IMG/VR virus record: IMGVR_UViG_2882649382_000014
Strand: one strand, 5' to 3'
Source of the DNA: an uncultured virus (IMG/VR IMGVR_UViG_2882649382_000014)
Lineage: Duplodnaviria; Heunggongvirae; Uroviricota; Caudoviricetes
Length of the DNA stretch: 64,000 bases
The translations under genes were made by a program, and so were the position numbers. Numbering within the stretch: position 1 is the stretch's first letter; every line of letters begins with the position of its first letter. Positions 3,997 through 60,074 of the stretch are shown piece by piece. A model generated the notes under the pieces. The model saw nothing but the letters and a program-made list of their open reading frames with translations. It did not search any database and was not told the origin of the DNA.

Positions 3997-5049
3997 TTAT
4001 GACTCCTCTGTGTTTTCTTCCTTAATCCATTCCAAACTTATTATTTTTAACTCTGTCTCTTTTTGGGAATTTGGCACTTTGAGATGGACTCCGATATGTC
4101 CATAGGGATCTTTATTGAAAGAAGAAGGGTTATAAAAGTCTGATAGCCGGATTTTCATTGTTTCCTCATGTCCACTGTTTTGGAAATAATATTGATCATG
4201 AAGGTATGCATGGCTTCTGCCACTGTCATGAAATCCAACATAGGCACAATATTTTGTATTATCATTTGATAATGCATATTGCAGATCGCCTTTATAAACA
4301 TATTTGATAACTAAATATCTTGTATAGGAATCTTCGGGTGAGTCAGGATACCATATGTCTTGTGTTGAATAAAAGTTTATTTCATTATATGGCAATGCGT
4401 CAATTCCGTTATGATAAATTCGTAATATATTATTTTCTGAATTTATTTCATAGTTTAATGTTGTTGAGGTGGAGTCGCTGCTGTCAATATTCCATTCAAT
4501 TTTTTTGCCAGGAGTTTCAAGTTCTACGATATTTGAGTGTCCAGTTGATATTATGGAAGGGTTTACTGAATCATTTACACCATATGCTGTGAAATAGATA
4601 TGCCCAAAGATAGGTACTGGTGATATACTGGTGCATGGATTTTTAGATAAAGTGTAATATAATATAGAAGTTGCATCATTTTTTGACACAGAATTGCTTG
4701 TCCCACAATATAAATCAGCACAGGTGACATCTGCACCAACTTTAGTATATGAAGCTGTTAATGAGCCTCTGTTATCTGGATTGTAAGAATATATTCTTAA
4801 ATCTTCTATTTTTAGGCTGTCATCTGTACTGTCTTCGCCGGAGTCTTCCCAGCTGGGTTTTCTGTTAATTACATCTAATATTTCTGCAATGTTTCCGACT
4901 GAATCATCCACATATTTTTTTGTTGCCGGATTATAATCATCTGTTGGTGTGAAAGGAGTAGTATTTGTTTTTTGCAGACAGTCTTCATGGCTTCCGTCTC
5001 CACCATCCACGCGGACAGTTTCACTATTTTTGGTTTTATATAGAATCAT
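3997..5049 (-). CDS. Putative tail fibre/accessory protein, paralogue of 190..1263
   Basis: 350 aa; first ~65 aa nearly identical to 190..1263, remainder divergent. Confidence 0.55.
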   Translation of the reverse strand: MILYKTKNSETVRVDGGDGSHEDCLQKTNTTPFTPTDDYNPATKKYVDDSVGNIAEILDVINRKPSWEDSGEDSTDDSLKIEDLRIYSYNPDNRGSLTASYTKVGADVTCADLYCGTSNSVSKNDATSILYYTLSKNPCTSISPVPIFGHIYFTAYGVNDSVNPSIISTGHSNIVELETPGKKIEWNIDSSDSTSTTLNYEINSENNILRIYHNGIDALPYNEINFYSTQDIWYPDSPEDSYTRYLVIKYVYKGDLQYALSNDNTKYCAYVGFHDSGRSHAYLHDQYYFQNSGHEETMKIRLSDFYNPSSFNKDPYGHIGVHLKVPNSQKETELKIISLEWIKEENTEES

Positions 5050-5091
5050 AATTTATCACCGCCTTTTTGATTGAAAAGAAATATTGTCTGG
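4856..5091. repeat. ~235-bp direct repeat, copy 2
   Basis: Closely similar to 1070-1303. Confidence 0.9.
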
Positions 5092-5106
5092 TCATATCTG
5101 TTTATT

Positions 5107-5224
5107 CCCACGAAGGCAAGGTGCAGACCAAATACCTTGTCTTCGTGGGGGACTTGTTAAGGAACCGAACGGTTCCTTTAGAGAGGTTAAGTTATGTTCT
5201 TCATTTTACAGAGGGATATTTGAT
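5107..5224. repeat. Hairpin plus degenerate copy of the palindromic repeat (copy C)
   Basis: CCCACGAAGGCAAGG...CCTTGTCTTCGTGGG hairpin; AAGGAACC...GGTTCCTTTAGAGA shared with 125-149. Confidence 0.5.
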
Positions 5225-5226
5225 TA

Positions 5227-7506: not shown

Positions 7507-7512
7507 CTCGCT

Positions 7513-7595
7513 AAAAGAGGGCTGTTTCTGAGACAGCCCGTCATGGACTGCCCATAAATTACTTGAACAGTTTGTTCAGTTCATTTATGGGCAGT
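7513..7595 (-). terminator. Two hairpins between the Tal and BppU genes
   Basis: ACTGCCCATAAAT/ATTTATGGGCAGT (7547-7595) and GGGCTGT/ACAGCCC (7519-7539) followed by TCTTTT on the minus strand. Confidence 0.55.
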
Positions 7596-7597
7596 TT

Positions 7598-10500
7598 TTA
7601 ATTTAAAATAAGTTTCTCCAGTTTTTCAAGCCTTTGTGTTAAACCGTCAATTTTCCTGCTTTGTTCACGGATGATTGTTTCTTTTTCTTCCAAAGCCTTC
7701 CACTGTTCTGTTACCATTTCATGGAGGGACTGGATGGCCGCTATGGCAGGTGCTTCAAATTCGTTATATTTCAGGCACCAGGACAGGTTTTCATCCCCAA
7801 TATTTTCCCTGTAATAGCCTTCACTTCCATCATCTTTTACAACAGAAGCTTCGTACAGTGCAAGGTCGCCCATATTAAGGTCTTTCGCTGTCTGCGCGAC
7901 ATGCTGTGCGCCGAACCCCATGTGTACCCTTGTGCCACTGCCTTTGAAGGTATACCTGATTGGGTTCAATGCAAGTATGAAATCCAGGGATTTCTTTTTG
8001 TCCAGTGTGCCAATCACATTTTTCTTTTTCAGGTCGGAAGTTGTCACGTAATCCCTTGCAAATGCTGCCTCCCATGGGAAAGTTGATGTCCCGAGCACCC
8101 CGCAGTCGCACGGTTCATTATCTATGCCGTTTTCAAAATCATCATTTTTTACGTCGAAGCTCCTAAAAACCATCCTCCGTTTCCGCTTCCCGGAGTAGTC
8201 GTGCTCGTCCTCTTCGCCAAATACGGCGATGTGGTGGGAGGAGCCGTCCCCGGTAAACACTTTGCAGTGGAGGGCATTATTGTGCTTCCCGATATATTTA
8301 TTTTCACAGAACAGTGCGTCACCTGAGCCGTGGTTTATAAGCTTTAAGGACGGGGTGTCCGTATGCCCTGTTATTTCCACGTCGTCGTGGATGGTGTCAA
8401 CTTTTAACAGGTATCTTGATTCCCCTGCTTCCTGTGCAGGTTTGCTTGCAGCATAAAAACCTGCCTGTGAGATATCAATGTACCCGTGGTTTTCCACAAA
8501 ATTATGGCTGGTGTCGTCATACAGCCCGAAAATATACTTCCCGTCCAAAAGCCTTGCCGCATAGTTCTCCATCAAGTTACCAGTGCCGGACATATAGCTG
8601 TGGATATTGCCGTCTGCTGTAAGCTCCACATGCCTTGTGCCGGGGTTCTGTGGGGTGGAAGAGTATATTCTGTCCTTTGAGATATTCCATCCGCCAATCC
8701 TCATGAGCTGGTTCCCGCCAAGGTTAAAGCTGAGCAGTTCCTCAGATTTGTCGTTATATATTTCCATGGATTTATTTTCCAGGTTGATGCACATGCCACG
8801 GCTTCCGCTTACATAATCCGCTGACTTTAAGATGCCGGTAATGATTCCTGTCGTGATTTTCAGGAAGCCGAGGCCGTCGGAGTTAAAGTCAAAAATATTT
8901 TCGCCATTTTTACGGATTACCATGGAAGGGTTTGCAGGGTCAAGCTTGATATGGTTTCCGGATTCATTTCCAACAAGCACAAAGCCGGAGAACCTGCCTG
9001 TGCCGTCAATAATGAGGCCGTCTGCAGGAGAGTAGCGCAGGTAAATGTGTCTGCTGCCGTTTACCATTTTTGACATGGTGACGGATGGCTCCATTGCATT
9101 GATTTCAATTGTATTGTCCTTATAGTTAATAAAAAAACCCTTGTCTGTAATGCTGTATGTGCCTGACTTATTATAGATTTTTAACATTTCGGACATGATT
9201 AAATTGGCAATCAAAACTTCTGCATTCAGCCCGTATGCCCATTCCCACTGGCTTGCTTCATCGTTATAATAAAAGATTTTCCCAAGCGCAAGGCGGGTAT
9301 GTTTCCAGCCGTCGGAAGTGAAGCAGAGGAGGTTATTGATGATGCGGAGCTGTTCATCATCAAATGCATTTTTCACATCATCCCACATACGCCCGGTCAG
9401 GCCGTACTGGTTTATGACGAAATCCTGGTTATCTGCGTTGGTAATCATGGTGTTTGCCACATCCAGGCCGGCTTCTTTCATTATGGAAAATTCCTGGTTT
9501 GTCATATACCCTTTTTCAGCCTGGCGCGATACGGAATTAAAATTGGAAGAGATGGAAGCCGCCTGCTGGAAGATGCTTTTTAAGTCTGCCACGGCACTGT
9601 TTGTTTTTGTAACATCTGAAAACTCCACATCAATATGGGAAACATCCGTGTAGTCAAATGATACAGAAATCAGGCGGAGGCGGTAAATATCCCCGTCTAT
9701 CTGTATCCGGAGCCAGTTGCCGATGCAAAAATCATCCCAGAGCGGTTTAAATTCCTCCATTGTCAGCAGGTTTCCAATAGTTGTATTGATGGAATAATGG
9801 ACTTCACAGGCGTCTGCCAGTTCTTCTTCTGCCCGCTTGATTAAGCCTTCTACATTTTCTGTGACAGTGGCGTTGTCATACCCATCCCCGGCGTAATTGT
9901 CATTCTTATAGGTGTCCTCGCGTTTAAAGGAGCAGAGCTCATTCCACAGCCCGTTCCCATAAGCCCCGTTTTGGTAGTTTTTGAGAAAATTTTCCATGCT
10001 GCACAAATTTTTGATTTCCTGTATCTGTGCTCCATAAGTTTCTATCTGCTGTTTTAATCCAGAAACCTTACTTTTCAGGTATGCCATCCTTGCATCAATA
10101 CAGGCAATATATTTGTAATATTTCCAAAGCAGGTCTTCATAAATATTGGAAGTGCCGCCGCTGCTGTTGATATACTTTAAAATTTTGCTTGTGTTCCCAT
10201 TGCTGTATTTTGGCGCGCCATCCTCCCCGTTAATAATCTTGTCGGCATCGGAGACAATGCCGGAGTTTAATTTTGCAACGATCTGGCTGCATGCTTCATA
10301 GGCGTCCCGGAATGACTGCAGCCTGTTGATACAGTACATGGTATAATGCGTTTGAGGGAGTTTCTGCGGGTTTGCTTCATTGTCATATTGTGCATATGCC
10401 AATGGGTTATATGGGGCGGAAGGGCTGGTGACTGGCGGGTCAAAGGAAATAATGCTTTCAGATGCCTCGCTGTTTTCCAGCGATAGTTCAAGCTGTTGCT

Positions 10501-13166: not shown

Positions 13167-13450
13167 TTATTTTTTGTACAAATCTGAATGAGTCCCTGTA
13201 TCAATTAACGTCAGTGTTAATATATCATCTTCAATAAGATATATTAGCAGCCAATCTGGTTTTGAATGTGACATTCTTTAAATCCATCCCAGTTTCCCTT
13301 TAATGGATGTTCTTTGTATTTTTCTTCAAGTGGGATTCCTTGAAGTAATTTATTCACAACAAAATCTAACAGAGAAATATCTAACCCCCGTTTTTTTGCA
13401 ATTTTTAAACTTTTTTTAAACTTTCCAGATAAGATTAATTTATATTTCAT
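13167..13450 (-). pseudogene. yafQ: YafQ-family toxin, frameshifted
   Basis: HPLKGNWDGFKECHIQ in frame 1; PDWLLIYLIEDDILTLTLIDTGTHSDLYKK continues in another frame after the A-run at 13260-13263. Confidence 0.85.
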
Positions 13451-13722
13451 ATGTCTAAATCCTCCAGTGCTTCTGAAAAGCTGTTATAGCGTTTTGTATT
13501 GGGATCTCTGCTAATTTGTTTTGCTTCTTCCATAGCTTCTATAACCTCTGGTTTAAGTGAAGGATATTTTATTTCAAAAGGAATTCCATTGTGCAAAATT
13601 ACTTGTCTAAGAAACATGTTCACTGCATCAGATAAATTAAGCCCTAATCCTTCTAAAAGTTCCACGGCTTGTTTTTTTGTGTTTTCTTCTATTCTGATTT
13701 GGGTTGGTGTAGTAGTTGCCAT
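13447..13722 (-). CDS. dinJ: RelB/DinJ-family antitoxin
   Basis: TQIRIEENTKKQAVELLEGLGLNLSDAVNMFLRQVILHNGIPF; overlaps the yafQ start. Confidence 0.9.
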   Translation of the reverse strand: MATTTPTQIRIEENTKKQAVELLEGLGLNLSDAVNMFLRQVILHNGIPFEIKYPSLKPEVIEAMEEAKQISRDPNTKRYNSFSEALEDLDI

Positions 13723-13826
13723 AGTATTACCTTCTTTCATTTTTTCCTTATATTACTACGGATGGTATACAATGTCAATTGTTTTATAGAAGGGGCAGTA
13801 GGGCAGCAGTAGCTGCCCTGTAATTC

Positions 13827-16800
13827 CTAAAACCTTCCCAATGTATTAGAGTATGCTTTTGTCATTCCTTTGGCTACGGATTCGTCAATAGCGCTCTGGA
13901 TCATGGTGGATCTTTTAAAGGTATCAACAAATGAGTGTTCATCTACAATTCCACTTCCATCAAGGTGGATTGAAATGCCGCCAACGTTTACATTTTGGGA
14001 GTTGGTGAATGAATTGGTTATTTCTGGCGTCTGTGCCAGTTTTGTGGCATTTTTCATGATATGGCTGGCAGCAGGTGTGATTTCCAGGAATTTACGGAAC
14101 TGCTTTGTCTGTTCAGATGTAAGGACGCTTTCGCCTCTCTGTAATGTGGCGATGCCATCGTCCCCGTTTTGGATGGCGGCTTCATTCAAAACAGAGGCAA
14201 TCCCTCCATTTGCAAAGCCAGCATTTTTCAGCGCATCGCGGATTTTCTTCGCTTCTTTTGAGGTAGGTTTTTTCCCAGAGACTTTTACGCCAAGTATTTT
14301 TGCAAGTTCTTTCATATCAGCCCATGAGGTATAAACCTTGCCGTATTTTTCTGCAAGGTATTGGTTTAATTCGTTTCCATATTCCCCAAAGGTATATTTA
14401 TTGATAAAAGTTGTGGACTGGTTTTTCAGTGACTTACATTTGCTCAGGCTTCCTTTGATTTGGAGGTTTAGTGATTTCAAATAGGCGCCGCTTAGGTCTG
14501 CGTTCTTATCTATTTTGGAAGCATTCGTTCTGTCAGGGGTGTGCCCATTGATATTTTCTGTCAACAGAGGGTTTTTGTCAACGTAATGTGGGCTGCGCTC
14601 AGAACGGTTCATGGAATTTTTTACAGACTCAATGGTAAGTTCAGGCTGGGCAGGTGATTTTACCTGGCCTAGATTGCTGCCATATGCATCGGTAGTAATC
14701 TGATATTGTTTTCCGTTGTAATCTGTATAAGTGCTTGTATAAGTGCCGTCTCCATTCTCTTTTGTGCGAAAGGAGTCAGCATTCCCATAGCCGGTTTTTT
14801 CCAGGGTATCTGCAATGATATAGCCGTTTTCGTCAATTGTCTTGACAACTGCCTCTATCAGGCTGTCCGTATTTTGCAGTGCGTTTTCAAAAAAGTTTTC
14901 CATGTCTTCTGACAGGTTGTCAAGAAGGTCTTCCTGGTCAGAAATCCATTTATCATATTCCGTATCTTTTAGGTCCTGCTGTGCTTCCTCAAGGTTTACC
15001 TTTAGTTTCTGCAGCTTTGCACGGGCTTCCTCGCTGTTATCCCCTGTTAATGCGGCAATCTGCTTCTGGATGTTTGCGATTGATTTTGTCTGGCTTGCAA
15101 TTTTACGCTGGTAATCATATAAGTCTTTTTCCGTTTGCAGCGCCTTTTTGCGTTTTTCAATCAATTCATTCAGTGCGTCAAGCTGTACGTTAAATGCTTC
15201 CTCTACAAGGCTGACAATGGATTCTTTCAGTTCTTCGTCAGCAAGGGCTGCATCGCGGATGGTCTGAATCCATTCCTGCATTTTTTGGTTCTGTGTCTGG
15301 AAATCATCCCCGGTTGTGCCTGCTGCAATCTGCTTTTGGTATTCAGCCATTGCGTTTTGGGCATTTTCAATGGTCTTTTTATTGTTTTCCATCTTATCAA
15401 TCCATAGGGAAATGGAGGTCAGGCCTTCGTCCGTCAGCCCGCCGGCGTCTTTGCTGGTCAGCTTTTTGTGGGAGAGTATGTCAGTCAGGAAGTCAATTTG
15501 GCTGTTTGCGGATGCAATCTGGTCTGCAATGATCGAATATTTCTTTAAATCCAAAGCATTTAACGCCTTCTGCCACTCAATTGTCTGCTGTGTGCAGGAT
15601 TCTATCTGCTGGTCAATGGACAGTAAATCATTCTGCAGGCCGTACCATTCCGGGGAGTAGTATTCAAAACGTTTTCCTGCCTTTTCCAGTTCTGCACGCT
15701 TTTTAAGTAATTTCTTCATCGTATCGGAAGAGGATTCCATCATGTCAGCATACATTTCTTTTGCAGCGTTTTTTCCGGCTGCTTCCAGCGTTGCAATCTG
15801 TGCCTGGATTGTTGCTATTTTTGCATCATTTATGCCAGTTTTGTTGTCATATTCCGCCTGGATGTTGTCATACATTGTTTTGTATGATTCCGCGATTTTT
15901 GCCTGTTCTTCTGCCTGGAGCCGTTTTTGCTCCGCAGTGTTTCCTTCCAGTTCTGCAATTTTAATAAGATGCTCATATTGCTTTTTTAGGCAGTTGAGGC
16001 TTTCGGCTTCATATTTGTTTTTGGTTTTAGCATCTATAGCGTTTGCTTCATACTGCTGGTAAAGATTGTACCTTGCTTCGGCAGAATCTGCACGGTTTTG
16101 GTGGCGTTCCACATTTTTTTCCCGGATTTTAGAAATTCTTTCTTCCTTTGCAAGCTTTTTGTCTCGTAAAGCATCTGTTACAAAATCAACACTGTTGTTG
16201 TAATCCACAAGCTTCTGGTATACATATTTATCAATGTTTGATACCTTTTTTAAAAGGGATTTGGGGATTTCTTTCTTCTGTTTAATTTTATTAATAATTT
16301 TCTTTTTGACAGATTCCGGGATCTTTTTTGATTTATTTACAGACGTTTTTGCTTTTTTGCCGGCCTGATTTCGGAATCTTTTTGCCCGTGTATAATAATT
16401 GTTATATGCTTTGTCTTCAGCAGGGAATGTGTTTATTTCTTTTCGGAGGATTTTGTTCTTTTGGTCTGTGGTGGTGGCATTGGCGTACCGTGCTTCCAGA
16501 TAGGTGCGTTTCCTTTCATTGCTATCTAGCTGCATTTCTAATTTCTGTTTTGAAAGTTCCCTGATGGAAGCAGACAATTCAAGGGTTGCTTTTCTGGCAT
16601 CCTGTGCTTTATCATAGTATGCCTCATATGTCTGTATGATGTTGGCAATGCTTGATTTGTAAGATCTGATATTATATGAGCCGTTTTGGAGCATTTTAAG
16701 AGAAATGCCATTTTTAGTCAGAACTTTTTTGTTACTGTTATAATAACTGCCTGCTTTTTTTTGGTATCTTGCAGATGCTTTTTCTTGTGCTGTAAGAAGT

Positions 16801-19439
16801 TTTGAGGTTTCCTTTATCTGGTTGTTGAGGTTTCTATTCTTCTTTGGTGTTGAAAACAGGTTTTCAAATTTTGTTTTCAACATATCCACTTTATCTTGCA
16901 GGAAGGTAAGTTTTTGTGACAGCCAGTCAATTTCCTGTTTGGATTCCTTGACGGGCTCTGGTTTTATAGAAGAATTTTGGTTATTTGATTCGGGAATTTT
17001 TGGGGATTTTGGTGAAAAGACAGGTTTTTTAGATCTGGCAGCTTTTTCTCTGGCAGTTTCTATCTCCTTTTTGGATTTGCGTTGTGCTTCTGCAAGTTCT
17101 GAAGTGGAGACGCTGCTTGGATTTTCCATTAATTTACGATATGCAGAAAGGGCAGTTGTAGTTCCGCCGATTGCATCAACTAAAGCTATCAGGTTATCTA
17201 TGTCTGATAATGAGTCTAGAGAAACGCCATTTGCTATTTGCTTTTCAAGAGCCAGTCTGTATAATGCATTTGTGGTTTCATCGGACCATTTTTGTTCTTC
17301 TGCAAGTGCTGTGATTTCATTGTAAGTTGCATTTGCAAGGTCAAGTGTTGTTGCCTTTGCCCACTGTTTTTCTGCACTTAATTCTGCTTCCTTCTGTATT
17401 AGCATGCTTTTTACAATAATATCTGCATTTTCAATTCCCATTGCCTGCAATTCTGCAATATAGCATTCTTTATTAGAGCTAGTCAGATTGGCCAGGAAGT
17501 TATTGCTGTTTATATATGCATTTGCCAGTTGGCTTGCTGCTTCCCGACAGTCAGCCATAGTAGATGAACCGTTCCCCAATACTTCATAAAAGTTTTCATA
17601 TGCTTCTGTACAGGATTTAATATCGTCTGGCATAGAACTGAGTATATCAGAGCCAATGCCGTTTTTTTCGGTGCTTTTATCACTGAGGTTTTCCTGCTTC
17701 TGGCTTAATATATCGGAAATGGAAGAGATGCCTGTCTTCATGGAAGCCAACTGTTCAACAGAGGAAACTTCTTTTAGCTGGTTGATATGCTTAACGGTTT
17801 CTTTTGCAGAAAGGCCAACCTGGTTTAGCCATGACTTAGCGCCAGTAGTTTTATTAAATGATTCTTCTGTAAGTTTTCCTTGTTTTGCCAGGGCTAAGAG
17901 TTCATCTTTAAGATTTTGTAAGGCGGCATCCTCTGGATTGTCCAGGGCGTCCCAGGCTTTGTCAAACCCAATAGCGATGTCATTGTTAACGCCCTTTTTC
18001 CAGGCTTCGGCATACGCCTGCCCATATGCTTCTGCTGTTTGAAAATCATTGCGGTCCGGGAGCGGGAAATTAAAGTCAAAATCATAATATTCGCCTAAAT
18101 CTTCTTTTTGTATATTTTTTAGTACAGAGTCTGCTTCCTGCATTGTCAGCCCTTTTTCCATTAATTTATTATGGATAATAGAACGCTGCTGTTCTTCTGT
18201 TAACCCCTGGAATCTTTCTTTAGTCTGTTCAAGGGTGTAGGAATAGAGCAGGTAGGCATCCTGGGCTTTTAAGGCAGAGTTGTATTCTTTTTGTTGTTCA
18301 GATGTTAAAGTGATTCCTGCATCTGTAAGCGATTTGTATGCGTCTATAAGTTTGCCAACAATTTTTGCATCCTTGCTGACCTTTTTATTAAAGTTTTCTG
18401 CATTAAATCTATCTTCAGTTAAATCGCCATGGCTGGCCATATCCTGGTAGGCAGTAAGATTATCTTGCAGCCTGTCTATGGCATTGCCTTTTTTTGCTAC
18501 AGGATGTGTGTTTCCTTCATCGTCGTAACGGACATAAAAATACTGTGTTTTATTATCAACTTTTGTTTTTGCTTTTCGCAGCAGTTCTTCTGCATCATCT
18601 GCCCGCTCTTTTTCCCTTAATGCAATTTTCCGCTCCAATTCATCATTCGTTTTTTGCAGGGTTTTCAGTTCATTTTCCTCTGCTATGGAGATTGTGCCAT
18701 TATTGGCTAACTCTTGCAGTTCACTGATCCTGCTTTTTGTGGAATCTAACTGTGCCTGAAGGCTGTTGACTTCCTGTGTTGTCTGGTTAAACTTTTCCTG
18801 GGCGTCATCTAATGCCTCGTTTTCCTTTTCTTCTTTATGGATTAGGTAATCAATTCCAGAGATTAAGGCACTGATTGCTTCTCCAATTGCTATCATTGCA
18901 ATGGAGTTGAGCGTTGCAGAGAGTACCTTGGTTGCAACTGTGGCAGCTTTTGCACCAAGTGTCTGTTGTTTCAGGGCGTTGTTGTGGGCAATTGCTGATT
19001 CCCGGGCAGCTTTGTTGGCGTTGATAAGGTCTTCTACGCTGGCTTTTTGGAGGTCAGTCTTTTGGATAAAGTCAACAATGTATCTTTTGGCACCGTTGTA
19101 AGTTTTAAAATAGTTATTCCAACTAGTAGTGCCTGCATTTACTTGCGCCTGAATATCCTGCAATTCTTGTAATAGATTTTCAGCGTCAGGTTTTTCTAAT
19201 TTTTCAAGGTAGGAGTCTATATTGCTATTTGTAACAATTTCACCTGATGGTGTAGTTTTCCAGGACATATTATTTTGGGGTATAAGTGCTGTTGCAAATG
19301 CATTTTTAAACTTTAAAAGCAAGTTTTCTCCTTCGTTAAAGGATTCTTTTATTTGTGTCCACCATTCTGCAAAACTGCGTTTACTAAACCCAATTTTATG
19401 ATTAAGGTCATCCAAGTCACTGTTAAATGTTTTGATAAT
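13827..19439 (-). CDS. Tape measure protein, exon 2 (1870 aa)
   Basis: Long helical/coiled-coil ORF with C-terminal GFANGG...LQRGESVLT motif; upstream of Dit. Confidence 0.85.
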   Translation of the reverse strand: MIKTFNSDLDDLNHKIGFSKRSFAEWWTQIKESFNEGENLLLKFKNAFATALIPQNNMSWKTTPSGEIVTNSNIDSYLEKLEKPDAENLLQELQDIQAQVNAGTTSWNNYFKTYNGAKRYIVDFIQKTDLQKASVEDLINANKAARESAIAHNNALKQQTLGAKAATVATKVLSATLNSIAMIAIGEAISALISGIDYLIHKEEKENEALDDAQEKFNQTTQEVNSLQAQLDSTKSRISELQELANNGTISIAEENELKTLQKTNDELERKIALREKERADDAEELLRKAKTKVDNKTQYFYVRYDDEGNTHPVAKKGNAIDRLQDNLTAYQDMASHGDLTEDRFNAENFNKKVSKDAKIVGKLIDAYKSLTDAGITLTSEQQKEYNSALKAQDAYLLYSYTLEQTKERFQGLTEEQQRSIIHNKLMEKGLTMQEADSVLKNIQKEDLGEYYDFDFNFPLPDRNDFQTAEAYGQAYAEAWKKGVNNDIAIGFDKAWDALDNPEDAALQNLKDELLALAKQGKLTEESFNKTTGAKSWLNQVGLSAKETVKHINQLKEVSSVEQLASMKTGISSISDILSQKQENLSDKSTEKNGIGSDILSSMPDDIKSCTEAYENFYEVLGNGSSTMADCREAASQLANAYINSNNFLANLTSSNKECYIAELQAMGIENADIIVKSMLIQKEAELSAEKQWAKATTLDLANATYNEITALAEEQKWSDETTNALYRLALEKQIANGVSLDSLSDIDNLIALVDAIGGTTTALSAYRKLMENPSSVSTSELAEAQRKSKKEIETAREKAARSKKPVFSPKSPKIPESNNQNSSIKPEPVKESKQEIDWLSQKLTFLQDKVDMLKTKFENLFSTPKKNRNLNNQIKETSKLLTAQEKASARYQKKAGSYYNSNKKVLTKNGISLKMLQNGSYNIRSYKSSIANIIQTYEAYYDKAQDARKATLELSASIRELSKQKLEMQLDSNERKRTYLEARYANATTTDQKNKILRKEINTFPAEDKAYNNYYTRAKRFRNQAGKKAKTSVNKSKKIPESVKKKIINKIKQKKEIPKSLLKKVSNIDKYVYQKLVDYNNSVDFVTDALRDKKLAKEERISKIREKNVERHQNRADSAEARYNLYQQYEANAIDAKTKNKYEAESLNCLKKQYEHLIKIAELEGNTAEQKRLQAEEQAKIAESYKTMYDNIQAEYDNKTGINDAKIATIQAQIATLEAAGKNAAKEMYADMMESSSDTMKKLLKKRAELEKAGKRFEYYSPEWYGLQNDLLSIDQQIESCTQQTIEWQKALNALDLKKYSIIADQIASANSQIDFLTDILSHKKLTSKDAGGLTDEGLTSISLWIDKMENNKKTIENAQNAMAEYQKQIAAGTTGDDFQTQNQKMQEWIQTIRDAALADEELKESIVSLVEEAFNVQLDALNELIEKRKKALQTEKDLYDYQRKIASQTKSIANIQKQIAALTGDNSEEARAKLQKLKVNLEEAQQDLKDTEYDKWISDQEDLLDNLSEDMENFFENALQNTDSLIEAVVKTIDENGYIIADTLEKTGYGNADSFRTKENGDGTYTSTYTDYNGKQYQITTDAYGSNLGQVKSPAQPELTIESVKNSMNRSERSPHYVDKNPLLTENINGHTPDRTNASKIDKNADLSGAYLKSLNLQIKGSLSKCKSLKNQSTTFINKYTFGEYGNELNQYLAEKYGKVYTSWADMKELAKILGVKVSGKKPTSKEAKKIRDALKNAGFANGGIASVLNEAAIQNGDDGIATLQRGESVLTSEQTKQFRKFLEITPAASHIMKNATKLAQTPEITNSFTNSQNVNVGGISIHLDGSGIVDEHSFVDTFKRSTMIQSAIDESVAKGMTKAYSNTLGRF

Positions 19440-19510
19440 CATACTATTATTTATAGAAGTTGTGGAGTACTATAGAAGGCGGAGACTATTAAGATGAATT
19501 AGGGTATTAG

Positions 19511-19539
19511 TTGAAAAGTATGGTTATCTTTGGTATTAT
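19511..19539 (+). promoter_or_regulatory. Sigma70-type promoter of the intron passenger gene
   Basis: TTGAAA-17 bp-TATTAT with extended TG; AGGAGG RBS before ATG 19571. Confidence 0.7.
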
Positions 19540-19570
19540 TAGATTATATAATAAGAGGAGGAGATGTATT

Positions 19571-20035
19571 ATGGCGTTATATTATTGTGATAAATGTGGT
19601 CATTTATGGCAATATCATGGTGGAAAACAAGATGATATATGTGATATTTGTAAAAATCGGCTTAGGCCAGTGCCCGACGAATATTTTGAAAACCCTGATT
19701 TTAAAGTATTGCTTAGTAAAGATATGGAGCAAAAGCTAATTCGTGACCTTGTTCTGACATCCCCAAACTTTGATCAGTATTATTTTGATAATAAAGACGA
19801 TATACAACTTCAGCAATGGGAGGAATATAGGGCAATGATGGAACATGGCAGGGCGGTTCTGGAAGGCCGTGATATTGGCAACCAATATGGCGTGTCCTGT
19901 CCATATTGCCACGCGACTAATGTAAAGAGGATTTCGGTTGCTTCCAAAGCATTGCATACAGCAGTTTTTGGGATTTTCAGCATGGGCAGGAACAGTAAGC
20001 AGTGGCATTGTAACCATTGCAATAGTGATTTTTAA
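19571..20035 (+). CDS. Cys-rich double zinc-ribbon protein, antisense inside the intron
   Basis: 154 aa; four CxxC pairs (CDKC, CDIC, CPYC, CNHC); short hydrophobic segment ALHTAVFGIF. Confidence 0.8.
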   Translation: MALYYCDKCGHLWQYHGGKQDDICDICKNRLRPVPDEYFENPDFKVLLSKDMEQKLIRDLVLTSPNFDQYYFDNKDDIQLQQWEEYRAMMEHGRAVLEGRDIGNQYGVSCPYCHATNVKRISVASKALHTAVFGIFSMGRNSKQWHCNHCNSDF

Positions 20036-20115
20036 GATGCTGCCTGTTTTACATACCGATAAAATGTTCTCCGTTTTTTCCACGATGGCAAGGAGAAGTC
20101 CATACATTACCCTGT

Positions 20116-20185
20116 TTCTTCTTAGGTGCGGAGTCTTACCTGACGAGGTGTTTTAAGTCTGGAAAGGCTTCGCACCTTTTTTATT
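20116..20185 (+). terminator. ~70-bp hairpin/terminator, direct repeat copy 1
   Basis: AGGTGCG...CGCACCT followed by a T-run; similar to 20372-20446. Confidence 0.65.
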
Positions 20186-20323
20186 CTCGCGTATGCAACG
20201 AGCCAAACGCAAGCTTGCTTGCGCTTGGCGACTGCGCGTGGGTCAAATACCCCGCCCCTCTGAGTCGAACAAGCTAAAGAGAAGCTAGGTCATGCTCCGT
20301 TGCTCTGCGGCGGGGTATTTGAC
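20180..20323. repeat. Palindromic MITE/REP-like repeat, copy B
   Basis: Perfect 15-bp inverted ends GTCAAATACCCCGCC(20242-56)/GGCGGGGTATTTGAC(20309-23); similar to 9-190. Confidence 0.75.
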
Positions 20324-20371
20324 TTTATAGGAAATTGCGCTGATTTGAGAATGAAGAACGCTGGTTTTGCG

Positions 20372-20446
20372 TTCTTCTTAGGTGCGACAGTAGCCTTGCC
20401 TGGCGAGGTGTTTTCGAGCCTGGAAAGGCTTCGCACCTTTTTTATT
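20372..20446 (+). terminator. ~75-bp hairpin/terminator, direct repeat copy 2
   Basis: TTCTTCTTAGGTGCG...CTGGAAAGGCTTCGCACCTTTTTTATT shared with copy 1. Confidence 0.65.
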
Positions 20447-20957
20447 GCTATCAAGAAACAGGGGAGCAGTATCACTCTTTTGGTTTCTACCCAGTCACGG
20501 GCAAGTTTTCCTTCTTGGTTTGGACTGTCTTTTACAAGCCATTTCTGACTCAAAACCGTTTACAAAGTCTCTGGACACTTCCATATCTGGGTTACCAGAC
20601 TTAGGGTTTCCGCTGCTGATTGGTGGTTTAGCCTGAATCCAAAGAGGCGCGCCACTTAGGTTTCCCATATGGCCTGCCGTATATTTTCTTGCCATTGCTG
20701 GCATCCTTTCGGAGTGCATGTCACGCCCATCGTTTCCAATCACGTTGTAGCTATACGGCACTATATATTCACTATAATAAAGCTTCCCAGCACTGGGGGA
20801 TAGCAGCCCCAATTACGGTTTATTTTATAGAACACTGTGAGTTGACTAAGTTCACACATTCCTGCCTTTGAAACCCGGTCTGCCGGGTAACTTAGGTATG
20901 AAGGGCATATTCAAAACAAATAACAGTTTATGAAATCCGTACACTCATACGGCGTTT

Positions 20958-22457
20958 ACCAGTGTTCTTGAAGCTTGTATATAAACCAGCTTCTAATCCA
21001 AGTGTCCCTAATGGGGATAGGGCAGGGACAAGCTCTGAGGCATGCTGGATGATGTTGTCAATCAAAACAGAGCCTGTCTTGAGTGCATCGGAATGTATTA
21101 TGCTGTTGACAAACTCTGTCCAGCTATTGGACAGCCTATTGAGCGTCCCGGTTAAATTCTGGGCGGACTGCCCTGCCGTTTCTATTGCAGAGCTCTTTCC
21201 TCTGGAATATTCTGCAAGCATGTTTTCATACTCCTGCCAGCCAGCCAGGAGCGCCGCCAGCTGTTCCGGGTGGTTCTGCCCAATGTTTTCTGTAATCTCA
21301 TTTTTTAATGGAGTCTTTTCTTCCAGCGCATTATATGCAATGGCCAAATCCTTTAAGATTTCGACGGGGGTTCGGAGATTTTCTGCGCTGCCGGCTGTTT
21401 CTGCCATGGCAGCATTGGCTTTTTGCAGCGTGTTTGCTATTTTATCAGAGGAAATGTCCTGCAGGGCAGAGATAATGGACTGGATGCCTTCGCCAATGGC
21501 TTCCCCGTCTTGCCTTGTATTTTCTGCGATTGTCCCCGCCAAGGCGGACAGTTCGTTGATTTTAATGCCTGCATTGGAGGCTGTAGAACCAGCTTTTTCC
21601 ATGACGGAAGCCATTGTCTTCAGGTTTACATGGTATTTGCCGGCAAGTGCGATCTGTCCGTCAAGGACGTCAGACAGCTTTTTGGCATCCTCTTTATATT
21701 TGTAGGCAGCGTTTGCGGCCAGCAGGTAGTTTTGCGCTGTTTCCGGACTTAGGCGGCCTGCCGTCTGGGCTTTTAAGGACAATTCTCCGAGGGAGTTTCC
21801 CTTTTGCCCGTAAATGCCTTGATTATTAAATCCATGGATGGCTGACAGGTAATCGGAAGAAAGCATGCCGTATTTTGATGCAGCGCCATAAGAAGCGCTG
21901 CCTAAGCTTTTTGTTTCACTTTCCGTAAAATGGTTTGCTTCTGAAATCTTTGCAAGGGTTGAATTGTTTTTTTGGATTGTCTTTAAGCTTTTCTGGAAGC
22001 TTCCGGCTGTCATCCTAACCATTTGAAAGGCAGAACTTAACCTGTCAAAAAAGTTTTCCAGGCTGTCCAATTTTAAATTGAGATTCAGGGGCACAGGGGC
22101 GTCCTGGATAGCTTTTTTGGCATCTGCAATTAATTTCTGGATTTTCAGCTTTGTTTTCCCGCTGTTAAACCCTGTTTCAATTTCTTTGAAAGAAAGGCTG
22201 TTGAAAGCCTTATCTATCTCAGTTTTTAACTCCCTTTTGTCAATTTTTGCCTTGAGCTTTATCTGCGTAAGCTGGCTTTCAAGCTGTCTGGCGTACTGTT
22301 TTAGCTGCTGCCGGCTTTCACCCCTGGCAAGTATGGCGGTCAGGCGGATGGTATGGACTGCTTTTTCCAGTTCTTTGATGCTGGAATTAATTTGCTTTTT
22401 GCTGGATTGTTTGTTTAACAGCCCGGTTAATTTTAGAATAGGTTCGTTATTTTCCAA
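20958..22457 (-). CDS. Tape measure protein, exon 1 (500 aa; the unspliced ORF stops at 20928)
   Basis: TP901-like TMP core (ELSALAGTIAENTRQDGEAIGEGIQSI; LRTPVEILKDLA); GGAGG RBS, TTG start. Confidence 0.85.
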
Positions 22458-23138
22458 TGATTTTACCTCCTTGGCTTTATATTTATATATATAAAGAGAG
22501 ATTACTGAAATAATCTCTCAGAGTTCCGAATTTTTAAAATATCTTCATCAAATGTGTTGCGGCATTCATTGTATAAGATAGTACTTCCCATGTTTTCCGC
22601 CTGCCTTCATAAAAGCAAATGGATGGCAGTCAACAGTTCTGCTGCAGAATAGTGGGATTGCTGGTTTAACGTTTTTTTGCAGAAGTATAACAGACAGGCG
22701 TTCCCTTTATGGCATTTTGTGTTAGTTGGGAAGATAGGAAAGATAGCTGGGAGTTCCCGATTTTAGCGCATGTGTCAAATTTTTGAAGAGTTTTATGTAA
22801 CGGGGGCTGAGAAATTTGTTTATGGAGAAGGGGTTCCTGCACCTTTTGCCTTAAAGCCGAACCAATCAACTGTATTGCTTACGGAATCTCCAACACTGTA
22901 AAGTCTGTGACGGTTGGATAAAATGTCAAGAAGATTGGAACTAAGGCTTTTTATGGTTGTAAAAAAATAAAAAATAATTAATAACTCAACTTTCCCATAG
23001 GGATTTCAACCTGAAATCCTTATAAATCTTAATATATTTAAGACAAAAAATGTCCTGTTGACATAGAAAAAAGCATCTGCCTCTGGTATCATAAAGTTAA
23101 CCCATAAACTCAAAAAACCGAGAGGAGATGCTAACTTT

Positions 23139-23890
23139 ATGATATTACAAAACAGTACAAATGAAAATACTTTACCTGAAATAAATATACAATTTATCAA
23201 AGCCATCCGGGAATTGAAAATCAGCGCCCTGCTCAAACAGTCTAACATATGCAAAGCCAGCTGTTCCAGGAATGGGGATGGCGGGAAGAAGCGTACCGCG
23301 TTTGAAATCTTCCAGTTCCTCCTCATGCTGGTGTTCGAAGGTACAGACCTGTTCCGGTTTCCTGGTTCAAAAAAGCAGGAAACCGCGTGTGCGAAAAGTA
23401 CATATTACCGTTTCCTGTCCAACTGCCATTACAGCTGGAGACGGTTTGTGCTGTTGCTTTCTGGAAAGGCCGCCGCATATTTCAGCACGCTTACACACCC
23501 GGAAAGGGTTAAATGTTTTGTTCTGGATGATTCTGTCATTCCACGCGGAAAAAGTAAAAAGGCTGGGCTGCTTTCTTTCGTCCATGGTCATGTCATCCAT
23601 AAAACCGTCAAGGGCTTCAGCCTCCTGCTGTCCGGCTGGATGGACGGTTGCAGTTTCTTGCCTGTTTCATTCAACATGCTGGCGTCCGCCAACGGGGAGA
23701 AGCGTATAAACCATGCAAACGAATCTATTGACAGGCGGACCAATGGCGCAAAAGCGCGGGAAGATGCCATAATGAAGAAGCCGGGGGCTGCAGCTGCTCT
23801 GATCCACAGTGCGCTTGAAGCGGGCATCGAAGCATCCTGTGTACTGATGGATACGTGGTTCACCAGCGAACCTTTCATATCCAGAGCCTT
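23139..23890 (+). pseudogene. Truncated IS4/IS701-like DDE transposase
   Basis: FVLDDSVI and VLMDTWF DDE motifs; the C-terminal half is replaced by integrase sequence. Confidence 0.75.
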
Positions 23891-24790
23891 TATTATGAAG
23901 AAACGGCTGTTTCGGCTTCTATTGCAAGGCTGGTAAAAACGGTGATGAATACGTCCATGCAGTATGCTGTGAATAAAAAAATCATTTCCATAAACCCAAC
24001 GATTGATGTGGCTCTGCCAAAGCAGGTAGAGAATAAAGCCTATCACACCCGGAACATTGATATACAAAAGACGTTGAATATGGAGCAGGTTTTAACGCTC
24101 ATTGAAGCGAGCAGGGAAACGCCAATCCATATGCAGGTATTATTTGCAGTGCTGTTAGGATTGAGGCGGTGTGAAATCAATGGGGTAAAATATTCGGATA
24201 TAGATTATATCAACCGGACATTGAAAGTGCAGCGGCAGTTAGGCAAGAAGCCAAACACGACTGCCGGGGACTTCCCGGCTAAGACGTTTACAAAACAGGA
24301 AATTGGGTTGAAAACGCCGTCCAGCTGCCGAACCATCCCCATACCGGATTATGTATTTGAAGCCATTCTGGAAGAAAGAAAAGTGTATGAGAAGAACCGC
24401 AGAAGGCGGTCAGGAACATTTCAGGATTTGGATTATATCTGCTGTTCCACCTATGGGCGTCCGAGAAGCAAGGATTTTCACTGGAGGCATTATAAAAAGC
24501 TGCTGGAGGACAATGGACTGCCCGATATAAGATTGCATGATTTGAGAAGTACCTTCTGCACTATCTTATTAAGGAACAATTTCAATCCTAAAGCGGTATC
24601 ACAGCTAATGGGACATGCGGAAGAAATCATTACCATAGATGTTTACGGAGATACCGCCGAAATCATTGAGGACTGCTTAGACGATCTCCAGCCGTTTATT
24701 GATGAAGTAATCCCGAAGGAAGAAAGTGAAGGCGGTACAGATTTTTCAGAAGACAATTATATAGAACAAATCAGTGAATTTCTTGCATGA
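23891..24790 (+). pseudogene. Tyrosine recombinase/integrase, N-terminally truncated
   Basis: GLRRCEI, HDLR, LMGH and DVY catalytic motifs; no native start, abuts the transposase fragment. Confidence 0.8.
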
Positions 24791-24821
24791 AAATTAGATA
24801 CTGGCATAATCAAATCGCATG

Positions 24822-24866
24822 AAAAAAGCACAGAACAAAAGTTCGGTTTTGGTCTGTGCTTTTTTT
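24822..24866 (+). terminator. Bidirectional intrinsic terminator
   Basis: AAAAAAGCACAGA...TCTGTGCTTTTTT. Confidence 0.75.
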
Positions 24867-25011
24867 GACTTATGTGTTATAATGAAAAACCAAATGACTG
24901 GATAATACTATCTGTACTGGCTGGTGTTATTCAGTGTTGTTTCGTTTTAAAAATATGGTTTTGTGACCTGCATTCGTGTAATTGCTATTTTAATGCTTAT
25001 TCGCCAGCTTT

Positions 25012-25260
25012 GCAAGCCCACAGGCGACCAGCCGCAGGCCATTGCCGAACTGGTCAAAGGCTTCAAGGAGGGCAATCAATTCCAGACTTTACTGGGGGTT
25101 ACGGGTTCCGGCAAGACATTTACGATGGCGAATGTCATTCAGGAATTGCAGAAGCCGACGCTGGTCATCGCCCACAACAAGACGCTTGCGGCGCAGCTTT
25201 ACGGAGAATTCAAGGAGATGTTCCCGGAGAATGCGGTGGAGTATTTTGTGTCCTATTACG
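25012..25260 (+). pseudogene. uvrB: Fragment of the 5' part of excinuclease ABC subunit B
   Basis: [10 protein letters not shown]...[12 protein letters not shown]...[29 protein letters not shown], then a stop; GC-richer than its flanks. Confidence 0.9.
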
Positions 25261-25459
25261 AAACCTGAAATTTGAATCTACATATAGTGTCTTCCTGTGC
25301 TGCTTTGTCCATATTTTGTGGAATATGTGGTATGGGTGGACTGGGTAACACATTATAGAAGGGGTGCAACAGGTGACGCTCATTCGTCCAGATGATGTTC
25401 GTAAAAGTAATGTGTGATACTGTTTTAAGTGTAGCGCATGGAGGCAAAGTTTTAGAATT

Positions 25460-25561
25460 AAATGCGAAAAGAGTTAAATAAACTCTATTTCGCATTTTTC
25501 TTTTATATCGGACAAACCTAGAAAAAATGCGGTAGAGCGTAAAAACTCTACCGCATTTTTT
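25460..25561. promoter_or_regulatory. Two related inverted repeats at the prophage left end
   Basis: AAATGCGAAAAGAGTT...AACTCTATTTCGCATTT and AAAAAATGCGGTAGAG...CTCTACCGCATTTTTT. Confidence 0.55.
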
Positions 25562-25594
25562 ATTTTACACATTTCCACGAGAGGAGGTAAGAAA

Positions 25595-25783
25595 GTGAGA
25601 AAACAGTACAAAAAATTGACCTATAGCGATAGGAAGAAAATTGAAATCATGTTAAAAGATGGAGCGACGCCAAAAGAACTAGCAAAAGAAACAGAAGTGC
25701 ATATTACAACGATTTACAGAGAATTAGAGAGAGGCGGCAGACCATACAAGGCAGACGAGGCACAAAAAACATTGTTTTGCTAG
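25595..25783 (+). CDS. Stand-alone IS30-type helix-turn-helix protein
   Basis: YKKLTYSDRKKIE...HITTIYRELERG; GGAGG RBS. Confidence 0.8.
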   Translation: MRKQYKKLTYSDRKKIEIMLKDGATPKELAKETEVHITTIYRELERGGRPYKADEAQKTLFC

Positions 25784-25795
25784 GGGGTAGAGAAC

Positions 25796-25939
25796 ATGGA
25801 AAATGAATTAGAAAAATTTAACGAATATATAAACGATTTAATAGACTTTTTTAACGGAAAAAAGACAGAGGAGGAAATAAACATCAGACCTATATCGTCA
25901 GAAGTAGATCAAGAAATGCAAAGAGATAGTTTTTATTGA
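25796..25939 (+). CDS. Small hypothetical protein (47 aa)
   Basis: MENELEKFNEYINDL...; GGGGG RBS; read directly from the sequence. Confidence 0.5.
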   Translation: MENELEKFNEYINDLIDFFNGKKTEEEINIRPISSEVDQEMQRDSFY

Positions 25940-25960
25940 GGCGGCAACGACCGCCAATAT

Positions 25961-26032
25961 GCGCCCTTAGTTCAACGGTTAGAACGCACGTCTTATAAAC
26001 GTGTAACACGGTTTCGACTACCGTAGGGCGTA
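25961..26032 (+). tRNA. tRNA-Ile, anticodon UAU
   Basis: Acceptor GCGCCCT/AGGGCGT; D stem GTTC/GAAC; anticodon stem CACGT/ACGTG with loop CTTATAA; T stem ACGGT/ACCGT with loop TTCGACT; no encoded CCA. Confidence 0.85.
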
Positions 26033-59735: not shown

Positions 59736-59867
59736 CGGATCGCGTTACAACTGGTGGCTTTCGTCGCCGTCCGCGTCGAACACTACCAACTTTTGCAATG
59801 TCAACAACAACGGCAACGCCAACAACAACGACGCGCGCAACAGCAATGGCGTAGCCCCGGATTTCGT
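59736..59867 (+). ncRNA. DGR template repeat (TR)
   Basis: AAC-rich master copy of VR1 and VR2, between avd and the RT gene. Confidence 0.97.
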
Positions 59868-60074
59868 CAGAGTAATTAAAAGGTTTGTGAACCGCTTTAC
59901 TCACAGAGGAAAGGAGTAGATAACCCACCCGGCAAGGGTAAATAGTCACTTTGATACAATCGGGTGGACGCTACTTGCATGGTAAGCCGCAGACGTGCGC
60001 GGCTTATTTCATACCCGGTATTGTCACGCAGTTAGTAGGTACGTCAAAATTTTACTGTACGGAGTGAATTTATA

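Follow-up and report, generated by a model that had tools for sequence, protein, structure and literature searches.

A probable group I intron with a conserved antisense zinc-ribbon gene in the tape measure gene of a gut prophage

The 64,000-nucleotide stretch of viral DNA analysed here (IMG/VR record IMGVR_UViG_2882649382_000014, hereafter the window) carries a phage tape measure gene in two parts. Two open reading frames (ORFs) lie on the − strand, at 20928-22457 (509 amino acids) and 13827-19442 (1871 amino acids). We assign to them exon 1 (20958-22457, 500 codons ending in ...FKNTG), whose true start may lie a few codons inside, and exon 2 (13827-19439, 1870 codons beginning with IIKTFNSD). 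The 1518 nucleotides (nt) between them, 19440-20957 on the − strand, have the boundaries of a group I-type intron, with U at exon position −1 and G as the last intron base, and they occupy the same site in related copies. On the opposite strand they hold a gene for a 154-residue zinc-ribbon protein. Taken together, our results argue that this is a true group I-type intron, that the tape measure gene belongs to a prophage (or what remains of one) in a gut bacterium resembling Lachnospiraceae, and that the antisense gene is bound to the intron lineage; we put the probability of this reading at about 0.8.

The protein encoded by exon 1 matches the Pfam family PhageMin_Tail (E = 1.8e-14) and tape measure families of the PHROGs collection (phrog_4211, E = 7.6e-32). 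At 20958/20957 the DNA reads ...AACACTGGT/AAACGCC... (longer: ...TTCAAGAACACTGGT/AAACGCCGT...), and at 19440/19439 it reads ...AGTATG/ATTATC... (longer: ...AATAATAGTATG/ATTATCAAAACA...), where the slash marks the splice site here and below. Removal of the intron yields an in-frame tape measure gene of 2370 codons with the junction FKNTG/IIKTF. If the intron is left in place, the exon 1 frame continues for nine codons to a TAA, and the ATG that opens the exon 2 ORF (19442-19440) has no ribosome-binding site ahead of it. Among 92 longer relatives of the exon 1 protein (892-2545 residues), the uninterrupted protein P0004 (2446 residues) aligns with both exons: its residues 1-511 are 55% identical to exon 1 residues 13-500, and its last 761 residues are 91% identical to the C-terminal end of exon 2. 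To examine the junction, we joined the tail of exon 1 to the head of exon 2 through an X and aligned this with the corresponding segment of 28 uninterrupted homologues. In 27 of the 28, P0046 being the exception, NK[DN]YG is directly followed by I/L-[TS]-[KQ], gapless at the junction. The 1518 nt therefore sit base-exactly within a conserved motif of an otherwise continuous tape measure protein, and the split and its boundaries, as proposed in an initial annotation made from the DNA letters without database searches, stand. Among phage records, blastn with the intron region and tblastn with the start of exon 2 gave no match; tblastn with the end of exon 1 returned distant tape measure genes only. 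Separately, exon 2 contains an insertion of about 68 residues (residues ~40-107, window ~19120-19320) that is absent from all 28 homologues; it starts some 40 residues past the junction and is unrelated to it.

Scanning the window with Rfam at gathering scores gave no intron match. A 2-kb scan returned a partial match to RF00028 at 20566-20792 on the − strand (21.5 bits against a cut-off of 50, E = 0.011), which spans model positions 60-147 only, corresponding to P4-P6 and the 5′ strand of P7. A second partial match to the same model was found in L011 (24.1 bits, E = 0.022). The covariance-model check named in the initial annotation was therefore borderline, without a gathering-level match and with a partial, sub-threshold alignment, and comparative evidence was sought.

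Eight ribozymes were aligned over 705 columns and compared with a hand-written group I model. This model was used because RNAalifold cannot represent a pseudoknot; the RNAalifold consensus, in which P4 and P6 were mispaired with 3′ segments, was dropped. The group I model (P1 and P3-P9, including P6, P6a and P6b, with the P3/P7 pseudoknot) has standard pairs in 96.7% of 860 cells, and compensatory changes, on both sides of a pair, occur at 44 of its 108 pairs. None of 500 column shuffles reached either value. When the 3′ partners were slid by 1-3 columns, only 33.6-41.7% of cells paired and 6-14 pairs were compensatory. The kinship of the eight copies makes the shuffle control overstate significance, and more trust should be placed in the slid control and in the compensatory counts for each pair.

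The catalytic core (20464-20821, − strand) comprises P3, a hairpin between P3 and P4, P4, an extended P5, P6, P7, P8, P9, P9a and P9b. P3 pairs AAACCGU (20815-20821) with ACGGUUU (20553-20559) in seven pairs, two of them compensatory, with C-G replaced by U-A in four of the eight copies. The six pairs of P4 (UGCUGG, 20787-20792, with UCAGCA, 20614-20619) are invariant. P7 (G(A)GACU, 20562-20571, with AGUCC, 20522-20528) has seven pairs, four compensatory, and P8 (20536-20551) has six, one compensatory. Between 97.9 and 100% of the cells of P3, P4, P7 and P8 are paired, and P8, P9, P9a and P9b all covary. The helices P3, P4, P7 and P8 claimed at the outset are thus borne out, P4 as an invariant helix and the other three by covariation. 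In P7 of all eight copies, the A of alignment column 576 is unpaired and columns 577 and 623 form a G-C pair; by analogy, we take the G-C pair beside this bulged A to be the guanosine-binding site. The earlier suspicion that P7 is decaying came from an apparent outer U-C pair, which arose because the bulged A had not been allowed for. With the bulge P7 pairs fully, and the window copy has the fewest private changes of the eight, namely five positions at which it is unique against seven otherwise identical relatives. The P5 extension contains GNRA loops and two CCUAAG-UAUGG motifs, which presumably represent the 11-nt tetraloop receptor.

Directly 5′ of P3 lies the internal guide sequence CAGUGUUCU (20829-20837, − strand), which forms P1 with exon positions −11 to −3 (20960-20968). 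All 72 cells of P1 (nine pairs in eight copies) are standard, and four of the nine pairs are compensatory. The guide changes follow both synonymous and non-synonymous changes of the exon (ACU, AUC, CUU, GCC, AUU, GUG). A ninth copy, the ORF-less intron of L029, has a covarying P1 of its own, GAUGCUC with GAGCAUC. U(−1) is present in nine of nine copies, and the terminal intron G in all eight with a located 3′ site (the window copy, L022, L023, L024, L025, L027, L028 and L029; L026, L113 and L114 do not enter this count). There is no P2 after the guide sequence. We rejected an alternative P1 near the 5′ end (UGGU with GCCG), whose bases belong to the covarying hairpin A described below and which is not kept in L023, L026 and L028. 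The invariant GUUUUG block was also considered as a partner of U(−1)AAA.

Between the splice site and the guide is a 5′ domain (20838-20952, − strand) made up of hairpin A (20937-20952), a branched hairpin (20859-20902), the invariant tetranucleotide AUGU (20856-20859) and hairpin B (20838-20854). Its helices, numbers 2-5 of the model, contain 3, 1, 1 and 3 compensatory pairs. On the 3′ side, a conserved block, AUGUAUGGACUUCUCC...GUGGAAAAAACGGAGAAC (20066-20107, − strand), is common to the seven ORF-bearing introns in which it was checked (the window copy, L022, L023, L024, L025, L027 and L028). The intron closes with the terminal motifs UCUCCG and ACUCCACAAC (19459-19485, − strand), followed by AGUAUG at the splice site, and a YYCACA motif and the final G recur in related introns. 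The block and the terminal motifs can pair (CGGAGA with UCUCCG, GUGGA with UCCAC), and in one copy, L025, both sides have changed, giving GUGGG with CCCAC. It is likely that they do pair, and since they flank the antisense cassette, the latter is probably a closed loop of the ribozyme's 3′ domain.

On this evidence, we regard it as very likely that the element is a group I intron. Group I introns of types IA1 and IA2 have been described in prophage tape measure genes of the Bacillus cereus group (TMP-IVS1, IVS2 and IVS3; Tourasse and Kolsto 2008, PMC2504315). They resemble the present family in occupying conserved sites in prophage tape measure genes, in being shared between prophages and, in some cases, in having no complete homing endonuclease gene. 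Set against those introns, the window family has a large 5′ domain ahead of the guide and lacks a P2 behind it; nothing like P7.1/P7.2 is inserted between P7 and P3′, and P4-P6 is Tetrahymena-like. Judged from its predicted fold, with no insert between P7 and P3′ and a P4-P6 that aligns to the Rfam consensus, the family looks different from IA1 and IA2. The terms 'antisense', 'opposite strand' and 'opposite orientation' are absent from PMC2504315.

The distribution of the intron was assessed by a DNA search with its first 458 bases. Of 301 genomes from the same family 9 gave a match, and of 401 from the same order 5; the nearest genome, G001, which has an identical copy, is counted in both sets. 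Eleven genomes contain a substantial ribozyme (G001, G170, G208, G163, G017, G164, G268, G169, G019, G597 and G558), and two more, G526 and G634, gave 44-nt matches. In every copy examined the homology starts, at its 5′ end, in the exon context AAGAAY NNN GGT/, and the located 3′ ends read ...AGTATG/ATHTTY or a near variant, with the final G. Intron lengths are 637 (L029), 1164, 1239, 1258, 1518, 1737, 2030 and 4246 nt. We also considered that there is no intron at all, and that a mobile element or moron lies between two independent genes or disrupts one. The ATG at the head of the exon 2 ORF, the nine-codon run of exon 1 to a stop and the missing gathering-level Rfam match would fit such an arrangement. 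However, the insertion is base-exact within a conserved motif, that ATG has no ribosome-binding site, the covarying group I fold includes pairing to the upstream exon, and the same arrangement recurs in 10 other genomes, all of which makes this explanation highly improbable.

Ribozyme identity among the copies is 76-86% at the nucleotide level (mean 81.7), while the 150 codons flanking the intron on either side have mean amino acid identities of 33.5% and 30.8%; nucleotide identities of the exon flanks (~70%) are near the floor of alignment scoring, so that the amino acid values alone are meaningful. The intron is thus far younger, or far more constrained, than its host tape measure genes. This gap in conservation, together with intron-less close relatives such as P0004 and the existence of an ORF-less member, points to horizontal spread of the intron. 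The ORF-less intron, in G019 (L029:7403-8039, − strand, 637 nt), lies in a shorter tape measure gene and has its own covarying guide and P3. At the other extreme, the L028 intron (~4246 nt, L028 coordinates 4141-8386) holds the zinc-ribbon gene and five further ORFs of 70-162 codons on both strands. These five gave no usable Pfam or PADLOC match, the 70-residue ORF having sub-threshold coiled-coil-type matches; a supposed likeness of one of them to ToxN/AbiQ was dropped for lack of Pfam or PADLOC support.

A second ribozyme type occupies the same site in other loci, such as L032:3960-4420, L057:3945-4520 and L064:3930-5650 (all − strand). Their exon context is ...KNVG/ and /IFKTF, and they contain the same antisense zinc-ribbon gene, in two copies in L064. 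With the window intron they have only a 5′ block, UUGUUUUGAAUAUGCC, in common; the core differs (AUGCGGGAA...AAUCCGCAGGG), and Rfam gave no match at E <= 0.1 on these loci. A single protein family thus goes with a single site in at least two ribozyme types.

The antisense gene of the window runs on the + strand from an ATG at 19571 to a stop at 20035 (154 amino acids, ending ...HCNHCNSDF). A GGAGGAG ribosome-binding site (19557-19563) stands 8 nt before the ATG, and further upstream is a promoter-like site (19511-19539: TTGAAA, 17 nt, TG-TATTAT) with 10 of 12 consensus matches. These features indicate that the oppositely oriented gene noticed in the initial annotation is real. Shine-Dalgarno-like motifs also precede the antisense gene in L022, L025, L027 and L028. 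Downstream, terminator-like hairpins followed by T-runs were read from the sequence and its repeats at ~20116-20185 and ~20372-20446 (+ strand); the terminator scan omitted both, as their loops are long. The apparent autonomy of the cassette, with promoter-like site, ribosome-binding site and terminator-like hairpins, fits the earlier proposal that the gene would be expressed outside the late programme.

An antisense zinc-ribbon homologue is present in 10 of the 11 related introns, always in antisense orientation, the exception being the ORF-less intron of G019. In G558 the gene is split over two frames (L114:2087-2552, − strand), by a frameshift or an assembly error. The ORF-bearing introns have one or two antisense ORFs that end in ...CPYC[HTK]..N..KI...FG.F...K..[HY]CN.C..[DN]F, and the zinc-ribbon ORF is the sole ORF common to the introns. 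A scan led by the protein, with one genome per species, located 79 loci, mostly from Lachnospiraceae or other Clostridia of animal guts. Tape measure-like coding sequence lies in the flanks on the opposite strand at 57 of the 79 loci and on the same strand at none. A ribozyme of the window type was found at 17 of the 79, always on the opposite strand and directly downstream of the gene, and 18 of the 79, several of them short, have no tape measure sequence, ribozyme or 5′ motif. Among 20 of the protein-found loci scanned with Rfam at gathering scores, the sole match was a tRNA. Since the gene occurs in 10 of 11 introns and opposite tape measure sequence at 57 of 79 loci, it is a long-standing, conserved partner of the intron lineage rather than exchangeable cargo. 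In L034 and L038, the place downstream of the zinc-ribbon gene that exon 1 and the ribozyme should occupy is taken by a transposase-like ORF whose C-terminus may be IS256-like; an insertion sequence seems to have struck these introns or genes.

The same counts bear on the suggestion of the initial annotation that the ribozyme is a neutral landing pad whose antisense gene is an exchangeable, lysogen-expressed moron, with different cargo in different relatives. Morons are promoter-gene-terminator units within the late operons of temperate phages. The window cassette would be like them in being autonomous, with expression independent of the surrounding late genes, and its anatomy (promoter-like site, ribosome-binding site, terminator-like hairpins) is moron-like. 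The ORF region is also far more variable than the ribozyme, with 28-49% amino acid identity to the window protein, one or two gene copies and differing N-termini. It tolerates insertions, namely host repeats in the window copy and the five extra ORFs of L028, and to this extent the idea that foreign DNA is accepted there holds. In contrast to morons, however, the cassette lies inside a gene by way of an intron, is inherited with the intron and is not scattered. The comparison of related introns at the same site gave the same protein family in 10 of 11, the family lies opposite tape measure sequence at 57 of 79 loci, where a free moron would be scattered, and no match to known defence proteins was obtained. 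We therefore consider exchangeable cargo improbable.

Next, we analyzed the antisense protein itself. It has an N-terminal zinc ribbon, a helical hairpin and a C-terminal zinc ribbon with an inserted helix; AlphaFold2 models reached a mean predicted confidence (pLDDT) of 79.3, and of 89.8 with 99 sequences. Ten intron proteins matched only zinc-ribbon families in Pfam, NCBIfam and PHROGs: Zn_ribbon_PaaD in all ten (best E = 5.4e-7), IS256_N_4Cys in seven (best E = 5.5e-6) and IS1/IS1595 in three (best E = 9e-7). The prediction that the cargo belongs to no known homing endonuclease family agrees with these matches. A PHROG 'HNH endonuclease' match in one of the ten (E = 0.0011) and a PADLOC 'HEase' match (E = 0.0016) covering 20 residues of a ribbon give no support for a nuclease, and the PADLOC search for defence proteins gave nothing usable. 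The N-termini differ: six of the ten have the zinc ribbon and an LVKTSPEFD helical region, two are short forms and two carry other domains. A profile search over 1.84 billion representatives found 3372 at E <= 0.001, 1449 at E <= 1e-10 and 35 at E <= 1e-30, and the protein Atlas has unnamed clusters only, mostly viral. In the alignment of 99 members only the eight Cys, K120, I121, G134 and K143 are conserved at >= 90%, and no His, Asp, Glu or Asn able to hold a catalytic metal is conserved among them. Foldseek gave no match in the PDB at E <= 0.001, VIA-align over 48,161 chains reached a best Z of only 3.0, a lack of match that does not exclude a fold, and the best profile matches among PDB sequences, zinc ribbons of RNA polymerase subunits and Nop10, had an E of no better than 0.029. 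These predictions describe a zinc-dependent binding protein that probably has nucleic acid as its ligand and by itself is probably no nuclease. Given the lack of conserved catalytic residues, we lean loosely towards binding that serves competition or mobility, and away from classical endonuclease activity.

The protein might nevertheless be a homing endonuclease of an unrecognised family, or the DNA-recognition subunit of one, that cleaves the uninterrupted KNxG/IFKT site. Such an enzyme would account for an intron that is much better conserved than its host genes and that sits at one site in very divergent tape measure genes, a pattern indicating horizontal spread. The zinc-ribbon gene is the only ORF common to the introns, its family follows the site through two or more types of ribozyme (L032, L057, L064), and ORF-bearing and ORF-less introns coexist, as in a homing cycle. 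The C-terminal ribbon resembles the N-terminal zinc-binding domains of transposases (IS256_N_4Cys in seven and IS1/IS1595 in three of the ten proteins), and antisense homing endonuclease genes are known from Didymium introns (PMC9548176). However, no nuclease family was matched in Pfam, NCBIfam, PHROGs or PADLOC beyond the zinc ribbons, no metal-binding His, Asp, Glu or Asn is conserved among the 99 members, no fold match to His-Me or other nucleases was obtained, and tandem duplicates and swapped N-terminal domains are unusual for such enzymes. An endonuclease is conceivable on these grounds, and we hold it doubtful. A bolder proposal, which we advance as speculation and think rather unlikely, is that the antisense zinc-ribbon proteins form a new class of intron-borne competition or mobility factor that recognises the uninterrupted KNxG/IFKT site. 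Made from their own promoter in lysogens and during infection, they would block the tape measure gene of an intron-less relative or bring a host nuclease to it. An allele with the intron, its site being split, would be immune and would spread or exclude rivals without a canonical homing endonuclease. Such a role, if real, would account for the association of one family with one site in thousands of prophages and in at least two types of ribozyme.

The preferred reading, a group I-type intron with a lineage-bound antisense gene, suggests the following course of events. On late transcription the RNA would fold with a 9-bp P1, formed by exon positions −11 to −3 and the guide directly 5′ of P3, and with a P3-P9 core containing the P3/P7 pseudoknot and a guanosine-binding P7. 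Cleavage after the invariant U(−1) and after the terminal G would join GGU/AUU, the ligated exons would read ...AACACUGGU/AUUAUCAAA, and one protein of 2370 residues would be made. The 3′ kilobase of the intron would form a loop, probably closed by long-range pairing, that carries an autonomous + strand cassette of promoter, ribosome-binding site, 154-codon ORF and terminator-like hairpins. The protein would be made from its own promoter independently of the late operon, and hence most likely also in the lysogen. It may serve the intron-bearing phage by competing with or excluding intron-less relatives, or by helping mobility, and would not act as a classical homing endonuclease.

Several observations weigh against this reading. 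The curated score of RF00028, a classifier cut-off and not a structural criterion, is not reached by the window intron, and six of the eight aligned copies gave no match to this model at E <= 1. About 120 nt of conserved, covarying structure separate the splice site from the guide, which is atypical; group I introns usually hold only the P1 loop there. The extra covarying hairpin between P3 and P4 is likewise atypical. The invariant G(−2) and U(−1) are not part of the covarying P1 helix. A tandem wobble between them and the U and G of AUGU, directly 5′ of hairpin B, is conceivable and would make P1 a helix broken by a hairpin on the guide strand; AUGU itself does not vary apart from an A in L028, so that covariation is uninformative here. 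As to the window copy, a private UU insertion lies next to P7 and a private C in J6/7. In contigs from four metatranscriptome libraries, which carry no strand information and for which DNA carry-over is possible, the exons are nearly uncovered and no contig joins exon 1 to exon 2; contigs cover 20411-20940, 20601-20850 and 19778-20114 within the intron. Within the window, the tape measure gene is not preceded by head or tail-tube genes. The prophage may be defective or incomplete and the tape measure gene no longer in use.

From the last points it could be argued that the window copy no longer splices and that the region is a fossil, a tape measure gene permanently split in a decaying prophage remnant. 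Upstream are only two small ORFs, an integrase and a tRNA, without similarity to the corresponding regions of four related prophages, and in addition to the UU by P7 and the C in J6/7 the private changes include an A-C mismatch in hairpin B and one base in the 3′ flank of P9b. The window copy has also received a 322-nt host-repeat insertion between 20125 and 20448. Against this, both exons are open over 500 and 1870 codons, the five private changes are the fewest among the eight copies, the repeat insertion sits in the loop of a hairpin with a 16-nt stem, and P1, P3, P4, P7, P8, U(−1) and the terminal G are intact. A fossil is unlikely on balance. We consider it likely that the window copy still splices.

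The hairpin that accommodates the insertion is peripheral (20110-20463, − strand) and is marked by inverted repeat I4 and direct repeats D1-D3. Its 16-nt arms (20448-20463 and 20110-20125) are 88% complementary, its loop contains the two host repeat elements, and in other introns a short hairpin takes its place. Homology with these introns ends at intron position 512, and positions ~513-780 are made up of two elements with matches at 44 further places in G001 (67-96% identity). These nested repeats (window 20115-20445) belong to families of ~120 and 148 nt. The first element is present twice, both copies terminating on the + strand in a long hairpin with the T-run TTTTTTATT behind it, and the second type contains a perfect 15-nt inverted repeat, GTCAAATACCCCGCC with GGCGGGGTATTTGAC. 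They gave no match in Rfam and resemble a family of small elements, intergenic or terminator-bearing, that is spread over the whole genome. One contig from the RNA libraries joins 20114 to 20371, which indicates that a variant lacking 256 nt of the insertion exists.

The persistence of group I introns in phage genes is usually put down to sense-strand homing endonucleases or to passive inheritance. Well-known examples with sense-strand homing endonuclease genes are the td, nrdB and sunY introns of T4 and the DNA polymerase and terminase introns of SPO1 and of phage Moonbeam (for Moonbeam, PMC4299906). The window intron resembles these in its place in an essential phage gene, its conserved target site and an ORF looped out from a peripheral helix. 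Unlike theirs, its ORF lies on the other strand with a promoter-like site of its own, and the protein shows none of the LAGLIDADG, GIY-YIG, HNH, His-Cys or PD-(D/E)XK signatures. Nuclear rDNA introns of Didymium carry antisense homing endonuclease genes with their own promoters (I-DirII and I-DsqI; PMC9548176, PMC3073962). They combine a self-splicing group I intron with an ORF that lies opposite to the host gene and has its own promoter, an arrangement comparable to the one proposed here. Those introns are eukaryotic, lie in rRNA genes, are driven by Pol II and encode proven His-Cys endonucleases, whereas the window intron is in a protein-coding gene of a bacterial virus and encodes a protein that matches no nuclease and in which neither His nor acidic residues are conserved. 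Full-text literature searches outside the subscription journals, with the matches judged mainly from listings and abstracts, turned up no paper describing a phage or bacterial group I intron with an antisense ORF.

The present lineage, in prophages of gut Lachnospiraceae, keeps an antisense zinc-binding gene without a nuclease signature. If its protein drives spread or exclusion, this would be a new means by which an intron earns its keep; if the protein is an accessory expressed in the lysogen, introns can stably embed independent genes in essential virion genes. With its unusual layout, missed by the Rfam model, the ribozyme would also help to detect introns in the genomes of gut phages, whose split tape measure genes otherwise enter annotations as two genes.

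The surroundings of the tape measure gene were inspected as well. Upstream (22458-26032), two small − strand ORFs are followed by a tyrosine integrase (23855-24790, + strand; phrog_1, E = 1.3e-39) and a tRNA (25961-26032). The tail module may come from a truncated or rearranged prophage. Directly downstream, before the distal tail genes, the stretch 13244-13740 (− strand) holds an ORF for a RelE-like toxin (phrog_7251, E = 5.2e-16) and, upstream of it, a partner ORF (phrog_2737, E = 3.8e-23). A second prophage occupies ~26-64 kb of the window and corresponds to the provirus record G002, with the tape measure region outside it. At 59858-61361 (+ strand) in this second prophage an RT-2 RNA (RF03077, 119 bits) adjoins a 428-codon ORF, and the two probably form a reverse-transcriptase-associated element.

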